Assembly: GCA_051294905.1 (NCBI GenBank)
Contig: CM119374.1
Location: forward strand, 3,720,001 to 3,784,000
Direction: 5' to 3'
Origin: Botryllus schlosseri
Taxonomy: Eukaryota
Length of the DNA stretch: 64,000 nt
Part shown: in pieces, positions 55,291-64,000 of the stretch
How positions within the stretch are numbered: position 1 is the stretch's first letter
Layout of the letters: each line of letters begins with the position of its first letter
Position numbers and translations under genes: made by a program
The notes under the pieces: generated by a model
The model's database searches: none
Told to the model about the DNA's origin: nothing
What the model saw: only the letters and a program-made list of their open reading frames with translations

Positions 55291-56322
55291 ATAGTTTTTT
55301 TACGTCTTTTGTAACGATTTTTATATATATCCAATCAAATTAACTAAGTACAACTACGAACGATCTATAATTATTCCACTGCGCCGTGCACGTGCGTAAT
55401 TATTTCACTGCGTGTCAAAAAAAGTTTGAGAACCACTAGGTTAATATATCTGCCAGACGTCAACAATGCTTCAAGTGAGGGGAGGGTTAATACGGGTTGC
55501 AAGTTGTGGTAGCGAAAGGGTTAATATATCTGCCAGACGTCGACAATGGGTCAAGTGATGACAGGATTAATAGCGGATGTAAGCTGTTGTAGCGAAAGTT
55601 TTAATGAATCCGCGGCCAACTGCGATTATTGTTTCTCTCGAAGCATCATTTTGACATCGAATGCCTATAACAAGCAACGCGATCGCATTCGATTTGGTTG
55701 ACTGGGATGACAGTGTACATATTGAACAAATGGGATCGCGGTCGTGAAAACTTGATGATTGCAGCGGCACACATAAACTTGAATATCACAAAACTACTAA
55801 AAAAATTCATCATGGAAGGTGAGAACGGTTTTAGGGTCTATCAGGGGCGCTGTTCTTGGAAATGCTATTAGTTTATGCGAATTAGCTCTAGTTTTCAAGA
55901 ATCCACTTAATTGTATTTTTTTCATCATGGTATTCAAACTTGGTAACATTCGATCAGAACGGCCTAAATTGAATGTTTCCCTATCCCAGAGAGTTGTCAT
56001 TATTGCGGGCAGTTTCGCATTAGGCACCAGCAGTAATTTTCCCCCATGCGAGTATTCCATCTACCTACAACTACATTGTTGTGATTGTATAGGTGCTGAT
56101 TACTGTAATTAGTTTACTTTGCTCTGTTCATTCCTTTCGTACCTCAGTTGCTTATATCTGTGTTGTCGAGTGCATGTCCTAGTTCCGTGAAGTTGATTGT
56201 AGCTGAATTTCAGTTAATAAAAACCTAGAAAGCTGTCAAGCAGTTTCGTCTTCGTCTACCTACGCTTTCCTCGAAAGGTCACCACAATTTTATTAACTGC
56301 TATTGACACAATCGACTCTGGA

Positions 56323-59300
56323 ATGACTTTCTCTCAAGAGAAGTGTATCCGCGTGCCGGTTCTAGATTTATTACCGAGCTCTCAAGACTCTTCGAAAGTA
56401 TTCAACCACTGGGACAAAATGTTGTCGAGCTTCATATCGTCTGCAGAGTCTTCTTTGCCATCGACCAGCAGCACGGACACTGGACAAGAATCCAGCAGTG
56501 GCCGTCCCGGGGCAGTTCTCGATAAGTTGGTTATTTTGATTGGTTATGTATCGCCAAGCGTGTACGCTTTGATCGAAGATCATGGCACGTTCGAATCTGC
56601 CATGGCACACCTAACCAAGTTATATCGGAAGAAAAAGAACATCATATATGCTCGACATTTACTCGCAACTGCTAAGCAAGACTCTGGTGAGACCGTCGCT
56701 GATTTCTCACAAAAGTTGATCGCGCTCTGTCTCGTGATTGCAATTTTGAAGCTGTTAATGCAGAAGTGCATAAAATGGAGGCCGTTCGAGATGCCCTAAT
56801 TACTGGCTTGCGGTCCTCTGGCATTAGATTGCGTCTTCTCGAACATGATGAGTTAACACTCGAAAAAGCCATGCAGATAGCAGACTCTCTTGAACGGGCG
56901 CAAGCGTTTTCCTCGTCCTATGAAATATCGCCTCCTACCGCTAACATGGTTCCGGGAAATCAGGAAATGCGGAAGACTTCACATACGCCTGATGAATCGC
57001 CTGTGTTGTCCTGCAGCTCTGAATTGGCTGCATTACAGAAGTCTCCAGAAAAAAAGAAGTGCTTATTTTGTGGCGGTTTCCATACGATGCTTCGCAAGTT
57101 TTGTCCAGCCCGAAACAGCGAATGTTTGATAGGCTTACCATACGTCCTCTTTTAAGAGGATTTGTCCTCTTTTTTGACTTCTTTGAAAGTGTCCTCGGAG
57201 GACGCCCTTTTGTCCTCTTTTTTGAGATTTTGTCCTCTTTTTTGAAAATTTAGGTCATATTTAGAGGAAATCGCGAGTGATATGCCGCAAATTAGCGCAG
57301 AAGTGAAGCTCCGGCGGGTATTTCGGAGGGAAAAGGGGTGAATTCAGCTCTGAGCGAAAAAAAGACCTTTTTTTTTTTTTTTTTTTTTTTTAGTCATCCG
57401 ATCATGAAGCGGGTAAACTTTACCTGTTTTTGAGAATTCTTCTCCAGTTTTGCTTGTCTGAAATTTCTGAAAAAGTGTCCTCTTTTTTCATTTCCGAAAT
57501 ATGGTAAGCCTAATGTTTGAGGTGTGGCCGACGGGGTCACTTTGCCAAAGTCTGCAAATTCGATTTGGCTTCGCTAGCCGGTGTACCCGGTTCTTTGAGG
57601 CGTTCGACGTTGGAAGTTTTTGTTGCTGAGAGGTTGGTCAAAGTACTTGTAGATTCGGGGGCATACGAATGCTACATTAGCTCATCATTCGCCAAAATTC
57701 TCAATCTCGTTCTTACTCCTCGGGATTACACAATTACCCTTGCATCAAAGTCATCTTCCGCTCGAGTTATTGGTCACGCATACGCGACACTTCGTATTGA
57801 AGATAAAGATTACGGCGCAACTCAATTTTGCGTCGTTGATGAACTGTGCGCCGACGTAATTATCGGCTTGGAATTCCTCAAACAGCATAAGAGAGTTATA
57901 TTTGAATTCGGTGGGCCGAAGGGAGATCTCGTAATAGGACGCAAGCATTGTGCCGTAGCTGCCGCTAAAGTGAGTGATCCGCCTGAAATATTCAAGTTTG
58001 TCGACCCAGCTGTAAAGCCTGTAGCTGTGAAGTCGAGAAAGTACAGCTCAGAGGATCGATCTTTCGCACGGACCGAGGTGTCAAAGCTCCTGGATGAAGG
58101 CGTTATAGAGAAGTCGGTATCTCCCTGGCGAGCTCAAGTTTTGGTAACCAAGGACCCTCGACATAAGAAAAGGTTGGTGATTGATTATTCGCGGACGATA
58201 AATCGATACACCCCTTTGGATGCTTATCCGCTACCAAAAATTGATGACATTGTCAATGAAGTTGCAAAAGGTGTTGTTTATAGCACGATCGATCTCAAGT
58301 CTGCGTATCACCAGGTGTCTCTCTATGCGGCCGACCGACCCTTCACAGCTTTTGAAGCTGATGGTTGTCTGTATCAATTTCGTCGCCTACCCTTCGGCAT
58401 CACCAATGGGGTCGCTGCATTTCAGCGGTTCATTGATAAATTTATAGCGGACAACCACTTGAAAGGCACAATAGCTTACTTGGATAATGTAACTATATAC
58501 GGAAGGAATCAGAAGGAGCACAATGAGAGGCTCTCTTCGTTCATGTCCGCCGCTGATTCAACAGGTCTGACTCTAAATAAAAATAAATGTGCGTTTGGGG
58601 TTTCGAAGCTCTCACTGCTCGGCCATCTGATATCCCACAATGATATTCGACCCGATCCGGATCATTTGCGACCCTTAACGCAAATGCCGGCTCCAAGCGA
58701 TACTCGTAGTCTGAAGCGCTGTTTGGGCATGTTTTCGTACTATTCAAAATGGATTCCGTCCTTTTCCGACAAAGTGAAGCCCCTCTGTGAAAATGTCGTG
58801 TTCCCCTTGCTTGAAAAACAGAGAAACGCATTTGAAACGTTAAAACAAAATCTACTTCGCGCCTGTTTGAGCTGCATCTATGATGACGAACCGTTTCAAG
58901 TTGAATGCGATGCTTACGAAGTTGCGATCGCCTCTATTTTAAGCCAAAAGGGCAGGCACGTTGCGTTCATGTCTCGAACGCTATCAAAATGCGAAATGAA
59001 ATACCCCGCTGTAGAAAAGGAAGCTTTGGCCATTGTCGAGTCTCTTCGAAAATGGGATTATCTCTTGAACCGAAATGAATTTAAATTGACAACGGACCAA
59101 AAGGCATTATCCTTCATATTTAGAAAAGACCATCCGAGTAAGATTAAAAATGCAAAGCTCAGTCTGTGGAAACTCGAGTTAAGTCCGCTAAAGTATCAAA
59201 TAATTCACCGCCCTGGATCCGAGAATATCGGACCTGATACTCTGTCTCGGGTTTGTTGTTCGTCCCCAGGCCAGCCACACATGAGCCTTGAAGAGATCCA

Positions 59301-60270
59301 TGAAGCGCTGAGTCACCCTGGGATTCGACGACTTGATCACTTTGTCCGATCCAAGAATCTACCTTTTTCTATGGAGGACGTTAAAAGAACTTGTGCTAAT
59401 TGTCAAATATGTGCTAAATTGAAACCTCGGTTCTTCATGTCTAATGAAACGAACAAGTTGATAAAAGCTACTCGACCATGGGAACGTATTAGCATCGATT
59501 TCAAAGGTCCCGTTGATGGACCCAGAAAGTTTGTACTTGTTATTATTGACGAGTACAGTCGCTTCTTATTCGCTTATCCTTGTCGCGACATGACGTCGTC
59601 AACGGTCGTCAATCGTCTCTCATCCTTGTTTTCGCTTGTCGGTGTACCGGAATATGTACACAGTGACAGGGGTGCCTCATTTCTATCTAAGGAAATCACC
59701 GATTTCTAGACACGCAAGCGTATTGCCACCAGCAAGTCGGCTCCTTATCACCCCACAGGCAATTCGCAATGCGAGAGGCTTAATCAGACTTTGTGGAAAT
59801 CCGTCAAGTTGCTTTTGGAAAGTCGGAGATTGCCGGAGAGACATTGGGAATCGGTTTTGCCGGATGCTCTGCATTCCATCCGGTCGCTCTTATGCACGGC
59901 AACTAATTGTTCTCCTCGTGACAGGTTCTTCAAGTTTGAAAGGAGATCCATGTTGGGCTACTCCATTCCCGACTGGCTTCTTCATGGCGGCACCGTACTT
60001 CTACGAAATTTTGTGCGGAACAAAGGCGACCCCCTCGTTAATGAGGTGGAACTATTGGATGCCAACCCTAAATACGCCTTAATACGTTACAGGAACGGCG
60101 TAGAATCAACGGTTTCCGTTAAGATCTCGCACCCTACCCTGTTTCTACAAAGTCTTCTGAGGCGCATGAAAGAAAGGAAAAAGAGTTTTCCTCTGTCTGC
60201 GATACGACGGAGCCGTCATCCGATGAACTTACCACCTCGTCCACAGCGAAAAAGATGGCGTTGCTTGTAA
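56323..60270 (+). pseudogene. gag-pol of the LTR element
   Basis: LVDSGA protease, YLDN RT site, CDAYE RNase H, H2C2 + D/D/E integrase; lesions: 2-nt insertion ~56726, MITE 57130-57512, TAG 59707-59709, frameshift ~60120. Confidence 0.93.
57130..57512. mobile_element. TAGGCTTACCATA-family MITE inserted in the gag zinc knuckle
   Basis: Perfect 13-bp TIRs; perfect TSD atgtttga. Confidence 0.95.
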
Positions 60271-60616
60271 AACATTTTCTCCGCGTCGCGACGAAGTAGT
60301 GGAGCCCAGTAGCAGCGCAGATGTCGAGGAACCTCCACTGCGCCGATCCACGCGCATAAGGCGCGCTCCCGAACGTTACGGGCAAGGGACCTCGTAAAAG
60401 CTAGTCCCTATTTTTCTTGGTGGGGGTGAATGTGGTGATTGTATAAGTGCTGATTACTGTAATTAGTTTACTTTGCTCTGTTCATTCCTTTCGTACCTCA
60501 GTTGCTTATATCTGTGTTGTCGAGTGCATGTCCTAGTTCCGTGAAGTTAATTGTAGCTGAATTTCAGTTAATAAAAACCTAGAAAGCTGTCAAGCAGTTT
60601 CGTCTTCGTCTACCTA

Positions 60617-60760
60617 CACTGTAAAAATTATTCTTGTTAATAAACAAGAAAAAACATGCTAGACTCGATTACTAGCTTACAGGCTTTTTCTAGTAACTCA
60701 TTACAATCTTACAAGCTAATTCTTGTTAACTCAATACAAGCCCATAGCTTGTAACTCTCT
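60617..60760 (+). mobile_element. Possible left end of a CACTA/EnSpm element abutting the 3' LTR
   Basis: TA|CACTGTAAAAA followed by cttacaag/cttgtaa/ttcttgttaa repeats; the other end is not in the window. Confidence 0.45.
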
Positions 60761-62106
60761 CTTTTTCTCTCTCACATTATACCTAAATGTTGCACCTGTA
60801 CTAGCAGTACCTATAACCAGAAAGACCCAATGTAGTCGGTGGCCATGATTGTTCGCAAATGTATAGCAAAAAGCTCATTTATTTACAGCCAATTAACTGC
60901 AGCAGATCAGCAGGCAATATACAGGCTCAAGCACAGATGGACAATAAACAGCAGCACTAGAAAAAGCAATTGTGTAAAAACAAAATTCCCATGACTTGGC
61001 CTGCAGCAGAACCAGCACGCTAACTCGAATTTTCAGGCAAGAAGCAATAATATTATAAATGTGTAAAGGCAAACTCATGAGCGTCACAACTGAATTTATT
61101 CAACAATAGTGCAGCTTGAAGACAGCATACTGAAGATGAATTGTTTGACAAGAACTCATGTAGTTTTGAAAGTAAATTATTTGGTCCAGTACAAACCTAT
61201 TCCATAACTATTTATACTTTGCAGCATCAAAATTGTCAAGTAATGAAGTATGCCGAAAACATAATCACTTAAGGCAAAATCTACTTTAGCACCCCAAAAA
61301 GCAAAACTACTTCATAACTTACCAATTTGTATATCAATGATCAATTGCATTTCAAAACTGCACATCAATTTTTATCACCCATTGAAGCGACTGCAGACGG
61401 CATACGCAGCCCTTTCATTCTTGCAATGCGGATGGAGAAGAAATGTAGAGTATTATTCATACCGCTCGCAAACTGGATATTGAATACCCAATGCAGTGAC
61501 ACAAAGCTAAAGCATATGAGAAATCTACCACGTCATTTATCACTAGCCCGTCGACGTGCACCGTCCACTTGGTCTCTTGAGTGTCAAGATGTATGATTGG
61601 GTTGGTTCTGAATTATCCTGAAAAAAGACCACACAACTGTATACTGAAAGGCAAGGAGAGTATGAAATTATATAGCCTATAATACTACCAGAGTAATAAT
61701 GGCTGATGTATTAGGTCAAAATGATAACTATGACATCAATTATACCAGAGGTGGCGAACCTTTTCGGTCGAAGGGACACACGAGATTTAGGAACAATTAC
61801 GCGGGCCACTTGAATGTTGATGACCTTTTTTAGTCGTCCGATAGGAGCGTACCGAATTAGGTAACGTTGAAAACAATACTTACATTACTACGCTTTAATT
61901 TTCATACAATTATGTCATGAAAACTATGTGTGCAAAGTGCAACTGTGCATTCGGAACTTGTGAACTATACGCCGGTATTTCCCGGTCATGGTGAACACGT
62001 CTATTTTAATGTTTCCCCATGAACACTCATTGTTTTCATGGAGCGCACTTTCTCTTTTTTGCCTTTTTCCTTTTATTTGCATTCTCTCGAATGTCGCTTC
62101 CAAAAA

Positions 62107-62119
62107 TGCTGACTCAGCA
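62107..62119. promoter_or_regulatory. Perfect T-MARE/AP-1 palindrome TGCTGACTCAGCA in the 3' region of the retroelement
   Basis: Exact consensus match ~75 nt after the stop; AATAAA follows on the - strand. Confidence 0.4.
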
Positions 62120-62194
62120 TATAATTAGTTACGAGGTTTGAGTCTGATCCGTCCGCTCCCATTTCACAGGGTTTTGCGCAAGCCGTCGTACGAC

Positions 62195-64000
62195 TTAATC
62201 CTGCTGTAAAATTTCGGCGGGAATCGGTCCTTTACACAGCACGACATCTGGATTCTGCGATTGTAACAGTTTGAGCCCTTTGTTTCTCAAGTCTTCAGCG
62301 TTCGTGCGCAGAGCCGTATTGCGCATTCTTGACTTTTCCGTTTTTGTCTTGCTCAGATGAATAAACCTCCTGTTCATTCGTTCAATGCCCAAAAGCTTAA
62401 TGTGCTTTGCATTTTCCTTGGTGGTCATATGGTATAATACCTCGCTCCTTTTGTATTCCTTATACGGAGGAGGTATTCCCTTTGTATGCCCATGTGCGGC
62501 GGCGAGTCCCCAGGCTGAAACTACAGCCCTGTCACACTTTCCCATGATGGAACTTATTTCCTCGATATCCATTGGTACACCGAGTTTCTCCCGAATTACG
62601 CGGCAGGTATCTTCCCAAGGATGGTACCCGTCAATTGCGTTATCGCAACTTTCGTGCCGGCAGTGAAACATCAATGCCCGTTGTATTCTCTCTCCGCGGG
62701 GCATTTTCAGCGCGTACCAAGGTTCTTCTCGCTTTGGGATTGTTGCCCAAACATGTGGGTCGTCGTCTCCCGCAGCCATCTCCATCCAATAAGATCGAGA
62801 CAATCCATCCGACGTGAATACTTGCAATGTGCTTAAATGGATTACCTCCTTTATTTGGAATCCCGAGAGGTGATTGAGCCATCTTTGAATCAAGGGTTTT
62901 GGGCTCGGATTCTTTGCCTTGTCCGTCATCCTTTTAAGGAGTCCAAACACCCCTGTGTTATCCGTGATTATCGTGAAGGGTAGGGCACGTAACATCGACT
63001 GCCACTTTTCCACCGAATCTTTTAGGGCTTTTAGTTCCTTTGTGCATGGGTCATAGGCTTTTGCCGCCGGAGTTACCCATTTCTGGCTGTAATAAGCGAT
63101 CGGGTACACTTCTTTAAACGGCGGTTTGCTTCCTTCCTCCGTCTGGAAGATCACTGACCCGAACCCTACATCTGACGCATCTGTTTCTACGAAAAGTGGG
63201 AGCTCCGGATCCAGATGGTACAAGACCCTGGCATTGTTGAGCGACGCCTGTGCCGTCTTGTAGTCTTGTACCAGTTCATTGGTCCAAAGTACTGGTGTTA
63301 CTCTGCCTTGTGTCGCAGGGACGTTACCGGTCAGCGCATCGAATTTAGCCAGTTTAAGGCTTAGCTCCGGGATATGCTCGGAGATGTAGCGGAGAGCGCC
63401 GATCCATCCCCGTAACTCATATATGTTATGGGGCGGTGAAAGTTCTCTCAGGGCCCTTATCCTTTCGGGCTGAACTTCGATTTCCTTTCCCGTCAGGGTT
63501 GCACCCAATAGGTTTACCCTCCGCTTTCCAATGAAGCATTTATTGACACTGACCGTCAATTTCATCTTGGCTAGTTGTTCAAATACCAGTCGTAGTAGTA
63601 CCAAATGGTCATCTACCGTTTTTGTGCTAAGGAAAATGTCGTCTATGTAGGCCTCCATAGGCGTTGCATTCTCCTCATCCGTCCGGCCATTTTGTTTCAT
63701 GTGATGTTGGTATTTTTCTATGATGGGTTTCACCACGCATTCTTGCATGTTTGCGCTCCATAGAGCAACTGCGGTCTTCAAACCCATCGGCATCTTGCGC
63801 CATCGCACGTGCATTCCTTTGATGGCTATACCCACGTATTGTTTAGACCTTTCCGTGACATCCATATGGAAATAGGCCTTCTTCAAATCTAGTAGTGAAA
63901 GTACTTCTCTGCCTTGGGCTAGTTGCTTTACATCTGGTACTAGCGGCGGAGGTACTTCTATCGATTTTATGGCTGCATTCAAGGGTTGGAGATTCTGTAC
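62195..64000 (-). CDS. Divergent Ty3/Gypsy-like RT + RNase H polyprotein with an integrase-relic C-terminus (open at the window edge)
   Basis: LDLKKAYF, MPMGL, YIDD; TDAS/KEL/TDN/DGLSR catalytic residues intact; ~200-aa tail without a canonical DDE core. Confidence 0.9.
   Translation of the reverse strand, partial: VQNLQPLNAAIKSIEVPPPLVPDVKQLAQGREVLSLLDLKKAYFHMDVTERSKQYVGIAIKGMHVRWRKMPMGLKTAVALWSANMQECVVKPIIEKYQHHMKQNGRTDEENATPMEAYIDDIFLSTKTVDDHLVLLRLVFEQLAKMKLTVSVNKCFIGKRRVNLLGATLTGKEIEVQPERIRALRELSPPHNIYELRGWIGALRYISEHIPELSLKLAKFDALTGNVPATQGRVTPVLWTNELVQDYKTAQASLNNARVLYHLDPELPLFVETDASDVGFGSVIFQTEEGSKPPFKEVYPIAYYSQKWVTPAAKAYDPCTKELKALKDSVEKWQSMLRALPFTIITDNTGVFGLLKRMTDKAKNPSPKPLIQRWLNHLSGFQIKEVIHLSTLQVFTSDGLSRSYWMEMAAGDDDPHVWATIPKREEPWYALKMPRGERIQRALMFHCRHESCDNAIDGYHPWEDTCRVIREKLGVPMDIEEISSIMGKCDRAVVSAWGLAAAHGHTKGIPPPYKEYKRSEVLYHMTTKENAKHIKLLGIERMNRRFIHLSKTKTEKSRMRNTALRTNAEDLRNKGLKLLQSQNPDVVLCKGPIPAEILQQD

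Follow-up and report, generated by a model that had tools for sequence, protein, structure and literature searches.

The window analyzed here, a 64,000-nt stretch of the Botryllus schlosseri genome (GenBank assembly GCA_051294905.1, contig CM119374.1, positions 3,720,001 to 3,784,000), ends inside a long minus-strand frame encoding a reverse transcriptase (RT) and an RNase H (RH). The question raised by this locus is what stands behind RNase H, at the usual place of an integrase, and how an element of this kind enters the chromosome. The original prediction, made from the letters of the window, read the tail of the frame as an integrase eroded into a catalytically dead relic. Our analysis leads to another answer: judging by profiles, a fold model and catalytic residues, the tail is a Tpt1/KptA domain, and the frame belongs to a 25.5-kb element that is quite probably an integrase-less, env-bearing retroelement, multiplying in a pararetrovirus-like way via RNA and a DNA circle and inserted by a transposase of its own. 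Positions up to 64000 refer to the window, and those beyond it are given on the assembly contig (G000:C4). The pol features lying in the window are as follows.

62195..64000, minus strand: window part of the pol frame; the whole frame runs protease-like domain, repeat insert, RT, RH, Tpt1
63494..64000, minus strand: reverse transcriptase core (Pfam PF00078), with YIDD at 63649-63638
62786..63211, minus strand: RNase H of the Ty3/gypsy-caulimovirid type (Pfam PF17917/PF17919)
62228..62689, minus strand: predicted Tpt1/KptA domain at the Pol C-terminus (Pfam PF01885, PDB phmmer and hmmsearch, AF2 and Foldseek, alignment)
~62659-62654 (Arg-His), ~62530 (Arg) and ~62371 (Arg), minus strand: predicted Tpt1 catalytic residues

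Read from 64000 to the stop at 62195, the frame comprises 601 aa, being the 3' half of a frame of 1276 aa stop-to-stop (G000:C4:3782195-3786025), whose part beyond the window contains a protease-like motif, FLADTGS. Hence the open frame of at least 600 aa noted in the original prediction was confirmed, and so were the intact RT and RNase H, with the motifs LLDLKKAY (at 63895) and YIDD (63649) in the former, and ETDAS (63187), KELKAL, ITDN and SDGLSR (62812) in the latter. The peptides that it quoted, including VQNLQPLN and the insert before YIDD, are all really in the sequence, and the insert, as read by eye, has a similar counterpart in the relatives P0002, P0005 and P0012. Its hint at caulimovirids was fair, but it does not single them out: in profile comparisons with RT-RH, Ty3 (186 bits) and 8r0s, a structure which we take to be the RT of cauliflower mosaic virus (185 bits), score equally, with foamy and MLV-type RTs lower.

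The 201-aa tail matches the Pfam family PTS_2-RNA (Tpt1/KptA) with E 9.1e-10 over profile positions 5–177 of 177, scoring 39.3 bits against the curated cut-off of 26. No match to rve or Integrase_H2C2 is seen in it at E ≤ 1, and the same scan found both domains in a neighboring Gypsy element. A phmmer search of the tail against PDB returned eight sequences, all of them Tpt1. An AF2 model of the tail, built from a 16-row alignment (pLDDT 85), yielded 21 Foldseek matches at E ≤ 0.001; the 19 listed are Tpt1/KptA entries (among them 1wfx, presumably of this family), and the best match, a Tpt1, has TM 0.73 and E 2.7e-11. Both hallmarks of Tpt1, the two-lobe fold and the Arg-His-Arg-Arg tetrad, are found: all 12 alignment rows have R42/H43/R85/R138 (numbering of the 195-aa query), the last two arginines aligning with Tpt1 Arg positions in the printed alignments and the Arg-His pair being placed by position only. 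The element domain departs from cellular Tpt1 in that the HGT motif reads HMT/HIT and the Arg of IRA is replaced.

In the alignments, the supposed H2C2 finger, GYHPW...CDRA, falls into the RNA lobe of Tpt1, and the peptide likened to YILVIVDxFSR, KHIKLLGIERMNRR, is a NAD-lobe motif holding a catalytic Arg. Thus an integrase relic is ruled out by the Pfam and fold matches. The original prediction had itself named a match of the tail to a known unrelated domain as contrary to it, and such a match is what we observe; nor is the tail eroded, since it evolves under purifying selection (dN/dS 0.18) and stays in frame even in derivatives that have lost RT. We regard it as a conserved RNA 2'-phosphotransferase domain with predicted activity. 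The host also has a KptA/Tpt1-domain cluster of its own (G000:C3:19.31-19.43 Mb; C14:5.157 Mb), the best member of which scores far above the domain of the element.

Relatives were sought with phmmer over 1.84 billion representatives and taken from ENA assemblies. Near-full-length Pol relatives (P0002, P0004, P0005 and P0006) are 37–49% identical; three relatives have a Pfam Tpt1 match after RNase H, none has an integrase match, and in P0004/P0152 Tpt1 is followed by an exonuclease-endonuclease-phosphatase domain. In a quick, midpoint-rooted tree built without named Metaviridae or Caulimoviridae references, the RTs of the relatives and of seven local groups form one branch of 11 rows (SH-aLRT 99), and 13 of the 15 other rows scanned carry rve and/or Integrase_H2C2. 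A metagenome scan gave only six weak generic RT matches.

The frame lies at one end of a unit bounded by terminal inverted repeats (TIRs) and a target-site duplication (TSD), with the following features.

G000:C4:3781953-3807453, minus strand: whole element, 25.5 kb (window part 61953..64000)
61945..61952, no strand: 8-bp TSD at the pol side; its partner lies past the far end, outside the window (G000:C4:3807454-3807461)
61953..61974, plus strand: TIR of the pol end, starting with GG and imperfect (16 of 22 positions shared with the far TIR)
62048..62074, minus strand: two 13-nt purine runs, candidate plus-strand primer (2 of 8 such runs in the element)
G000:C4:3785854-3788838, minus strand: gag, 995 aa, with a CCHC knuckle and an A-AAA-AAC slippery site
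G000:C4:3789178-3789195, minus strand: tRNA-Thr primer site
G000:C4:3789418-3789441, minus strand: spliced leader, 24 nt
G000:C4 ~3790300-3798900, minus strand: repeat arrays and small open reading frames (ORFs)
G000:C4:3798915-3801218, minus strand: mucin-like membrane ORF
G000:C4:3801222-3803462, minus strand: env2
G000:C4:3803537-3806125, minus strand: env1
G000:C4:3806230-3807246, minus strand: Merlin/IS1595 transposase
G000:C4:3807432-3807453, minus strand: far TIR

On the minus strand the order is therefore TIR, transposase, env1, env2, mucin-like ORF, repeats and small ORFs, leader, primer site, gag, pol, TIR. Looking beyond 64000 for gag, protease, env and a 5' long terminal repeat (LTR), as had been suggested, revealed gag, the protease-like motif and env-like genes; the LTR was not found, as there is no terminal direct repeat at the element ends. 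The anatomy of env1 (cleavage site, fusion peptide, heptad helices, transmembrane segment) fits a class I fusion protein, with Atlas leads at 0.87–0.89; fold searches with its model were uninformative. No integrase was detected: neither rve nor H2C2 is matched in the 9+4 ORFs scanned, and tblastn with the integrase of the neighboring element gave no match in 15 element pieces, so that a Gmr1-type order with integrase upstream of RT is also ruled out. A tyrosine recombinase has no Pfam match in 13 ORFs of the focal copy, short ORFs not being exhaustively tested, and no tRNA genes or Rfam families are matched in the element pieces.

In place of an integrase, the element encodes a transposase with a Pfam match to IS1595/Merlin (E 1.6e-10), the DDE triad of which is invariant (10/10) and which carries an N-terminal CxxC-CxxC motif. 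Alignment gave both ends of 23 copies (seven groups), with the best GG within 22 nt taken as the terminus, and all 23, ranging from 14 to 44 kb, have GG termini and a perfect 8-bp TSD; two of them, C7a and C7b (G000:C7:15.81 and 15.86 Mb), are 97% identical duplicates inside a 177-bp satellite array and share the same TSD. GG-ended TIRs and an 8-bp TSD are the signature of Merlin (PMC8101967). The terminus at window position 61953, about 240 nt past the pol stop, is shared by nine of the ten copies first compared, and the tenth has a different inverted repeat of its own at the pol end. For a type II-like copy at C1:8.88 Mb the ends were looked for and not found.

Moreover, a same-strand Merlin transposase accompanies 56 of 62 near-full-length RH-Tpt1 loci (49 upstream, seven directly downstream). 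These loci were retained from 103 rows after dropping partial, RT-deleted and G-group ones (see below), and the 61 terminal-type transposases from 119 rows after dropping internal paralogs and fragments. The RT-RH and transposase trees of 24 copies give the same subfamilies (Mantel rho 0.93), which shows long linkage of the two and nothing more, since kin share labels. As the TSDs and GG termini of all 23 copies are those of Merlin, the loci are paired with the transposase and the trees agree, the element's own IS1595/Merlin transposase is very likely its integrator.

The copies lie at unrelated sites and are 91–94% identical within the closest group. Non-autonomous derivatives (G000, C15:3.77 Mb, C2:30.30 Mb and C16:18.31 Mb) have RT and RNase H deleted, retaining the leader, gag and an in-frame protease-Tpt1 ORF of ~860 aa. 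Larger subfamilies encode, in addition to the terminal transposase, an internal Merlin-type one that is ~40% identical to it and lies 9–20 kb upstream of pol (e.g., L055:2163-3068; about 25 similar rows). Different subfamilies may be adjacent or nested (G000:C16:20.59-20.66 Mb; C3:31.12-31.18 Mb).

Evidence for an RNA step comes from the region upstream of gag. RNA reads on the piece with the focal copy (L021) pile up on a 24-nt stretch, and in 2008 reads of one run this 24-mer passes straight into the template-switch adaptor on its 5' side, with varied sequence on the 3' side. The adjoining adaptor and the many different 3' continuations identify it as a trans-spliced leader, presumably that of stolidobranch ascidians. 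Its exact sequence occurs 236 times in the genome, in 115 cases followed by the GGACC motif of the family; of 32 family sites found when two mismatches are allowed, 30 have it unchanged, including subfamilies whose RTs are only 56–60% identical, and in at least 47 of the 62 loci it lies 4.1–7.2 kb upstream of pol. Between close pairs of copies the leader differs at 2% of positions, compared with 8% upstream and 11% downstream, and with 31% in the five bases immediately 5' of it; on the 3' side of the leader, hypervariability could not be clearly made out (14 vs. 11%). No gene for the spliced-leader RNA was identified among the sampled leader sites.

Downstream of the leader we observe primer sites. 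In the focal copy, 18 of 18 nt match the host tRNA-Thr(AGU), 223 nt after the leader. Among seven tRNA types tested, a site of at least 12 nt (Thr or Ile) follows the leader in 18 of 39 family sites (14 of them at 18/18) and in none of 22 other leader sites; 11 more family sites match tRNA-Thr over 10–11 nt. Close copies differ in the primer site, and some type II copies have the Thr site and others a different 18-mer, which is what re-copying from the primer would produce. Taken together, these features make it highly probable that reverse transcription is part of the life cycle. Priming of the minus strand by the leader itself, similar to Tf1 self-priming, was rejected, as 8 of 32 family sites beat shuffled sequences at p ≤ 0.05 vs. 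7 of 26 other leader sites. Leader bases 1–12 can pair with a site ~80–105 nt downstream in most subfamilies and, since a proper tRNA site is found, this pairing is retained only as a possible 5' structure. A precedent for leader priming in Tor of Oikopleura was not borne out, "SL RNA" occurring nowhere in the accessible text of PMC4402516.

The leader also heads unrelated repeat families (L151, L152, L153, L154, L155, L157 and L158), one with direct repeats 1.8–1.9 kb apart and one adjoining TAA runs. In L030, L062, L077 and L116 the last 4–11 leader bases are repeated right after it, with no AG before the repeat. The ~600 bases upstream of the leader in the focal copy (L021:9442-10000) are unlike those of its six sisters and weakly match subfamily B, possibly due to recombination; an upstream segment unique to each copy is a wrong description, as only the focal copy differs.

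The genes are under purifying selection: in the seven closest copies, dN/dS equals 0.03 for RT, 0.04 for RH, 0.10 for the transposase, 0.12 for gag, 0.18 for Tpt1 and 0.19 for env1 (dS 0.2–0.3; 0.68 for env1). Stops are absent from the RT, RH, Tpt1 and protease segments of all 27 copies, and present in 2 of 24 transposases, 3 of 22 env1 genes and 4 of 16 gag genes. The check for other genomic copies and dN/dS proposed with the original prediction thus speaks for a multicopy element with a selected tail. Its suggestion of a selected, integrase-independent, virus-like retroelement rather than simple decay was right and, if anything, too modest; its variants of integration in trans (in view of the probable own transposase) and of domestication are not favored. 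On these sequence grounds, the element appears to be neither decayed nor domesticated.

Gene order varies in a way that points to a circle. The permuted order gag-pol-transposase-env-env (type II) was found at seven loci, and four type II copies tested are still TIR-bounded with 8-bp duplications. Group G, with RT 47% identical, has the order leader-gag-pol (G-patch and Tpt1)-ORF-env-ORFs and no transposase match in its five copies (G000:C3:28.66-28.68 Mb, C1:0.97 Mb, C1:23.96 Mb, C2:22.03 Mb, C12:19.13 Mb). Four of these run pol-env-leader-gag across the RNA end junction with differing breakpoints: three copies start at pol residue 421, 641 or 835 and end at gag residue 975, 777 or 651, and the other two are rearranged. 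Group G is a candidate endogenous animal pararetrovirus, by sequence a transposase-free, env- and Tpt1-bearing sister lineage. Its ORF235 was considered as a second Tpt1, for which a score of 3.7 bits gives no support. Since type II copies keep TIRs and TSDs while G copies open at different points, and since RNA starting at the mid-unit leader would have to cross the termini to take in the transposase and env, a DNA circle is a likely intermediate. Such a circle is reportedly also formed by DIRS/Ngaro elements. The small contig C125 was considered as an episome and rejected.

These observations would fit the following cycle. Circular DNA would be transcribed and the RNA would receive the host spliced leader, giving the order leader, primer site, gag, pol, abutted inverted repeats, transposase, env, env, mucin, accessory region. 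The minus strand would then be primed ~220 nt from the 5' end by a host tRNA, tRNA-Thr here and tRNA-Ile in other subfamilies; RT would copy up to the capped leader and, with little homology, switch to the 3' end of the RNA, leaving variable bases 5' of the leader. The finished DNA would be a circle, opened by the transposase at the abutted repeats and inserted with an 8-bp duplication. For a new round, an integrated copy would need to leave the chromosome as a circle; otherwise, its insertion would be a dead end for a virus that passes between animals. Particles and infection are about an even matter.

The place of Tpt1 in this cycle is its weakest, unproven link. RNase H generates 5'-phosphate ends. 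TRPT1/KptA ADP-ribosylates 5'-phosphate ends of RNA and DNA (PMC6582358). As the domain could act on such ends, stays in frame in RT-deleted copies and is paired with an end-processing enzyme in one relative, protection or healing of ends is our best guess, and a tentative one: Tpt1 might cap (ADP-ribosylate) 5'-phosphate ends of replication intermediates, or remove terminal or 2' phosphates.

Three other explanations should be weighed. The view originally proposed, of a Ty3/gypsy element that lost its integrase to in-frame decay and either integrates in trans or has been domesticated, would account for the Ty3/gypsy-like RT-RH and for the tail at the usual integrase position; we give it practically no credence, since profile, structure and catalytic residues all identify the tail as Tpt1, the element is present in multiple copies at sites unrelated to one another, and 8-bp TSDs with TIRs are not integrase products. 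One could also imagine a giant Merlin cut-and-paste transposon carrying gag-pol-env as cargo and moving only at the DNA level, the leader and primer site being fossils of one old retro-insertion. In favor of this are the Merlin-typical TIRs, TSDs and DDE transposase, the absence of LTRs, the searches that found neither a circle junction nor RNA, and the existence of internally deleted and RT-less copies. Still, passive cargo would decay, yet RT has dN/dS of 0.03 and no stops in 27/27 copies; the leader is exact across subfamilies with RTs 56–60% identical, the primer site differs between close copies, and group G spreads without a transposase, all of which makes this explanation improbable. 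An exogenous enveloped pararetrovirus repeatedly entering the germ line via a captured transposase, with the copies being dead ends, overlaps with the last step of the cycle above. It agrees with copies that are individually divergent (91–94% in the closest group) with intact, selected genes, with the silence of germ-line copies in the runs tested, with related Pols in other public assemblies and with G copies resembling accidental circle insertions. Against it, there are dozens of precise insertions flanked by TSDs, and RT-less derivatives occur in multiple copies, which rather suggests amplification inside the host; we consider the exogenous virus a serious but less than even possibility.

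A number of observations weigh against the integrase-less retroelement inserted by its own transposase. No paired transposase is seen at 6 of 62 pol loci, and non-autonomous copies without RT and RH have no transposase or env match in the stretches fetched. Two TIR-bounded copies (C10:1.25 Mb, C13:16.47 Mb) lack the leader, which fits DNA-level movement or later deletion. Pol and gag are nearly without RNA reads in three RNA runs, of each of which 3–6% was read, and the transposase end has none in one RNA run. The abutted TIR-TIR junction has no match in the assembly, with a pattern covering two subfamilies, nor does it occur at the transposase end in contigs of three DNA-type runs; tandem or nested copies are another possible source of the permuted orders, and truncated tandems would look the same as G. 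The env identity rests on anatomy, the structure model being poor (pLDDT 47), and the pair counts behind the dN/dS, leader-variation and Mantel figures are not independent.

An ordinary Ty3/gypsy element adjoins the locus in the window (56075-60618, plus strand). It has short LTRs (190 bp aligned, 97.9%), an rve integrase with a stop, and a ~380-bp inverted-repeat insertion in gag (~57130-57513).

Known gag-pol reverse-transcribing elements integrate by an rve integrase, by a tyrosine recombinase, or not at all (PMC12440569). In the literature searched, with most subscription journals and Repbase outside reach, no retroelement is described that encodes a Merlin transposase or has Tpt1 fused to Pol. 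If the integrase-less retroelement is as we propose, it would represent a fourth route, in which a cut-and-paste transposase acts on a circle made by reverse transcription, and caulimovirus-like replication would extend to animals. Transposase-free (G) and transposase-bearing states coexist in one genome, which makes it possible to study how integration was gained. Tpt1, for which a role other than in tRNA splicing is still not settled (PMC6333775, PMC6582358), would gain a defined substrate context beside RNase H. We somewhat favor an unrecognized family of enveloped animal pararetroviruses (Ortervirales without integrase), with a host leader at the genome start and Tpt1 in Pol, one branch of which regained precise integration via a captured Merlin transposase, becoming a retrotransposon with DNA-transposon ends that bridges classes I and II.

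Among known systems, Teratorn (piggyBac and alloherpesvirus) is likewise a giant virus-like unit with TIRs and a captured DDE transposase, and its excision to a circle is also proposed, not shown (PMC6431247, PMC10175614); unlike it, our element carries reverse-transcribing gag-pol-env rather than a DNA virus, and has a Merlin/IS1595 transposase, 8-bp TSDs and a size of 14–44 kb. With Merlin and IS1595-IS1016 it has in common DDE_Tnp_IS1595, intact here, GG-ended TIRs (imperfect ones are reported) and an 8-bp TSD (8–9 bp for the family), and differs in size, retroviral genes, RNA-derived features and the CxxC-CxxC motif, Merlin elements being described as lacking a zinc finger (PMC8101967); "reverse transcriptase" does not occur in the accessible text of that paper, and the DNA-only movement of Merlin is contradicted indirectly by the leader, the primer site and the selected RT. 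DIRS/Ngaro also combine an LTR-type RT-RH with a substitute integrating enzyme (PMC12440569), but our element uses a DDE transposase instead of a tyrosine recombinase, has protease and env-like genes, and makes TSDs. Cellular Tpt1/KptA/TRPT1 share the two-lobe fold, the tetrad and the NAD-lobe motifs (PMC6333775, PMC6582358); here the domain is fused to RNase H in a Pol polyprotein and its activity is predicted.

Errantiviruses and other Metaviridae (PMC13524379) and Oikopleura Tor (PMC4402516) resemble the element in CCHC gag, frameshifted PR-RT-RH pol, primer site and env-like gene, but have LTRs and an rve integrase; the gypsy-type PR-RT-RH and primer site of Metaviridae are found here, and their LTRs, integrase and 4–6-bp TSD are not. 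The words "transposase" and "inverted repeat" are absent from the accessible text of PMC13524379. Spiretroviruses have retro-type gag-pol and a spike-like glycoprotein, their topology being left open by the authors, and integrase is among their named genes, one entry having an integrase-like core (PMC11071296); the six readable supplements of that paper contain no Tpt1 or IS1595 terms, and overlap with them is possible. Caulimoviridae share PR-RT-RH without integrase or LTRs, tRNA priming and, if the probable circle is formed here, circular DNA (PMC7660458), and endogenous caulimovirids are permuted and rearranged comparably to the G-group copies (PMC10377300). They are non-enveloped plant viruses of 7.1–9.8 kb primed by tRNA-Met (PMC7660458), in contrast to the larger (14–44 kb) element, which has an animal host, env-like genes, separate gag and frameshifted pol, a Thr/Ile primer, a spliced-leader 5' end, Tpt1 and a dedicated transposase. 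As judged from sequence, the element probably combines a pararetrovirus-like working with the integration system of a DNA transposon, and appears to be a member of no family tested.

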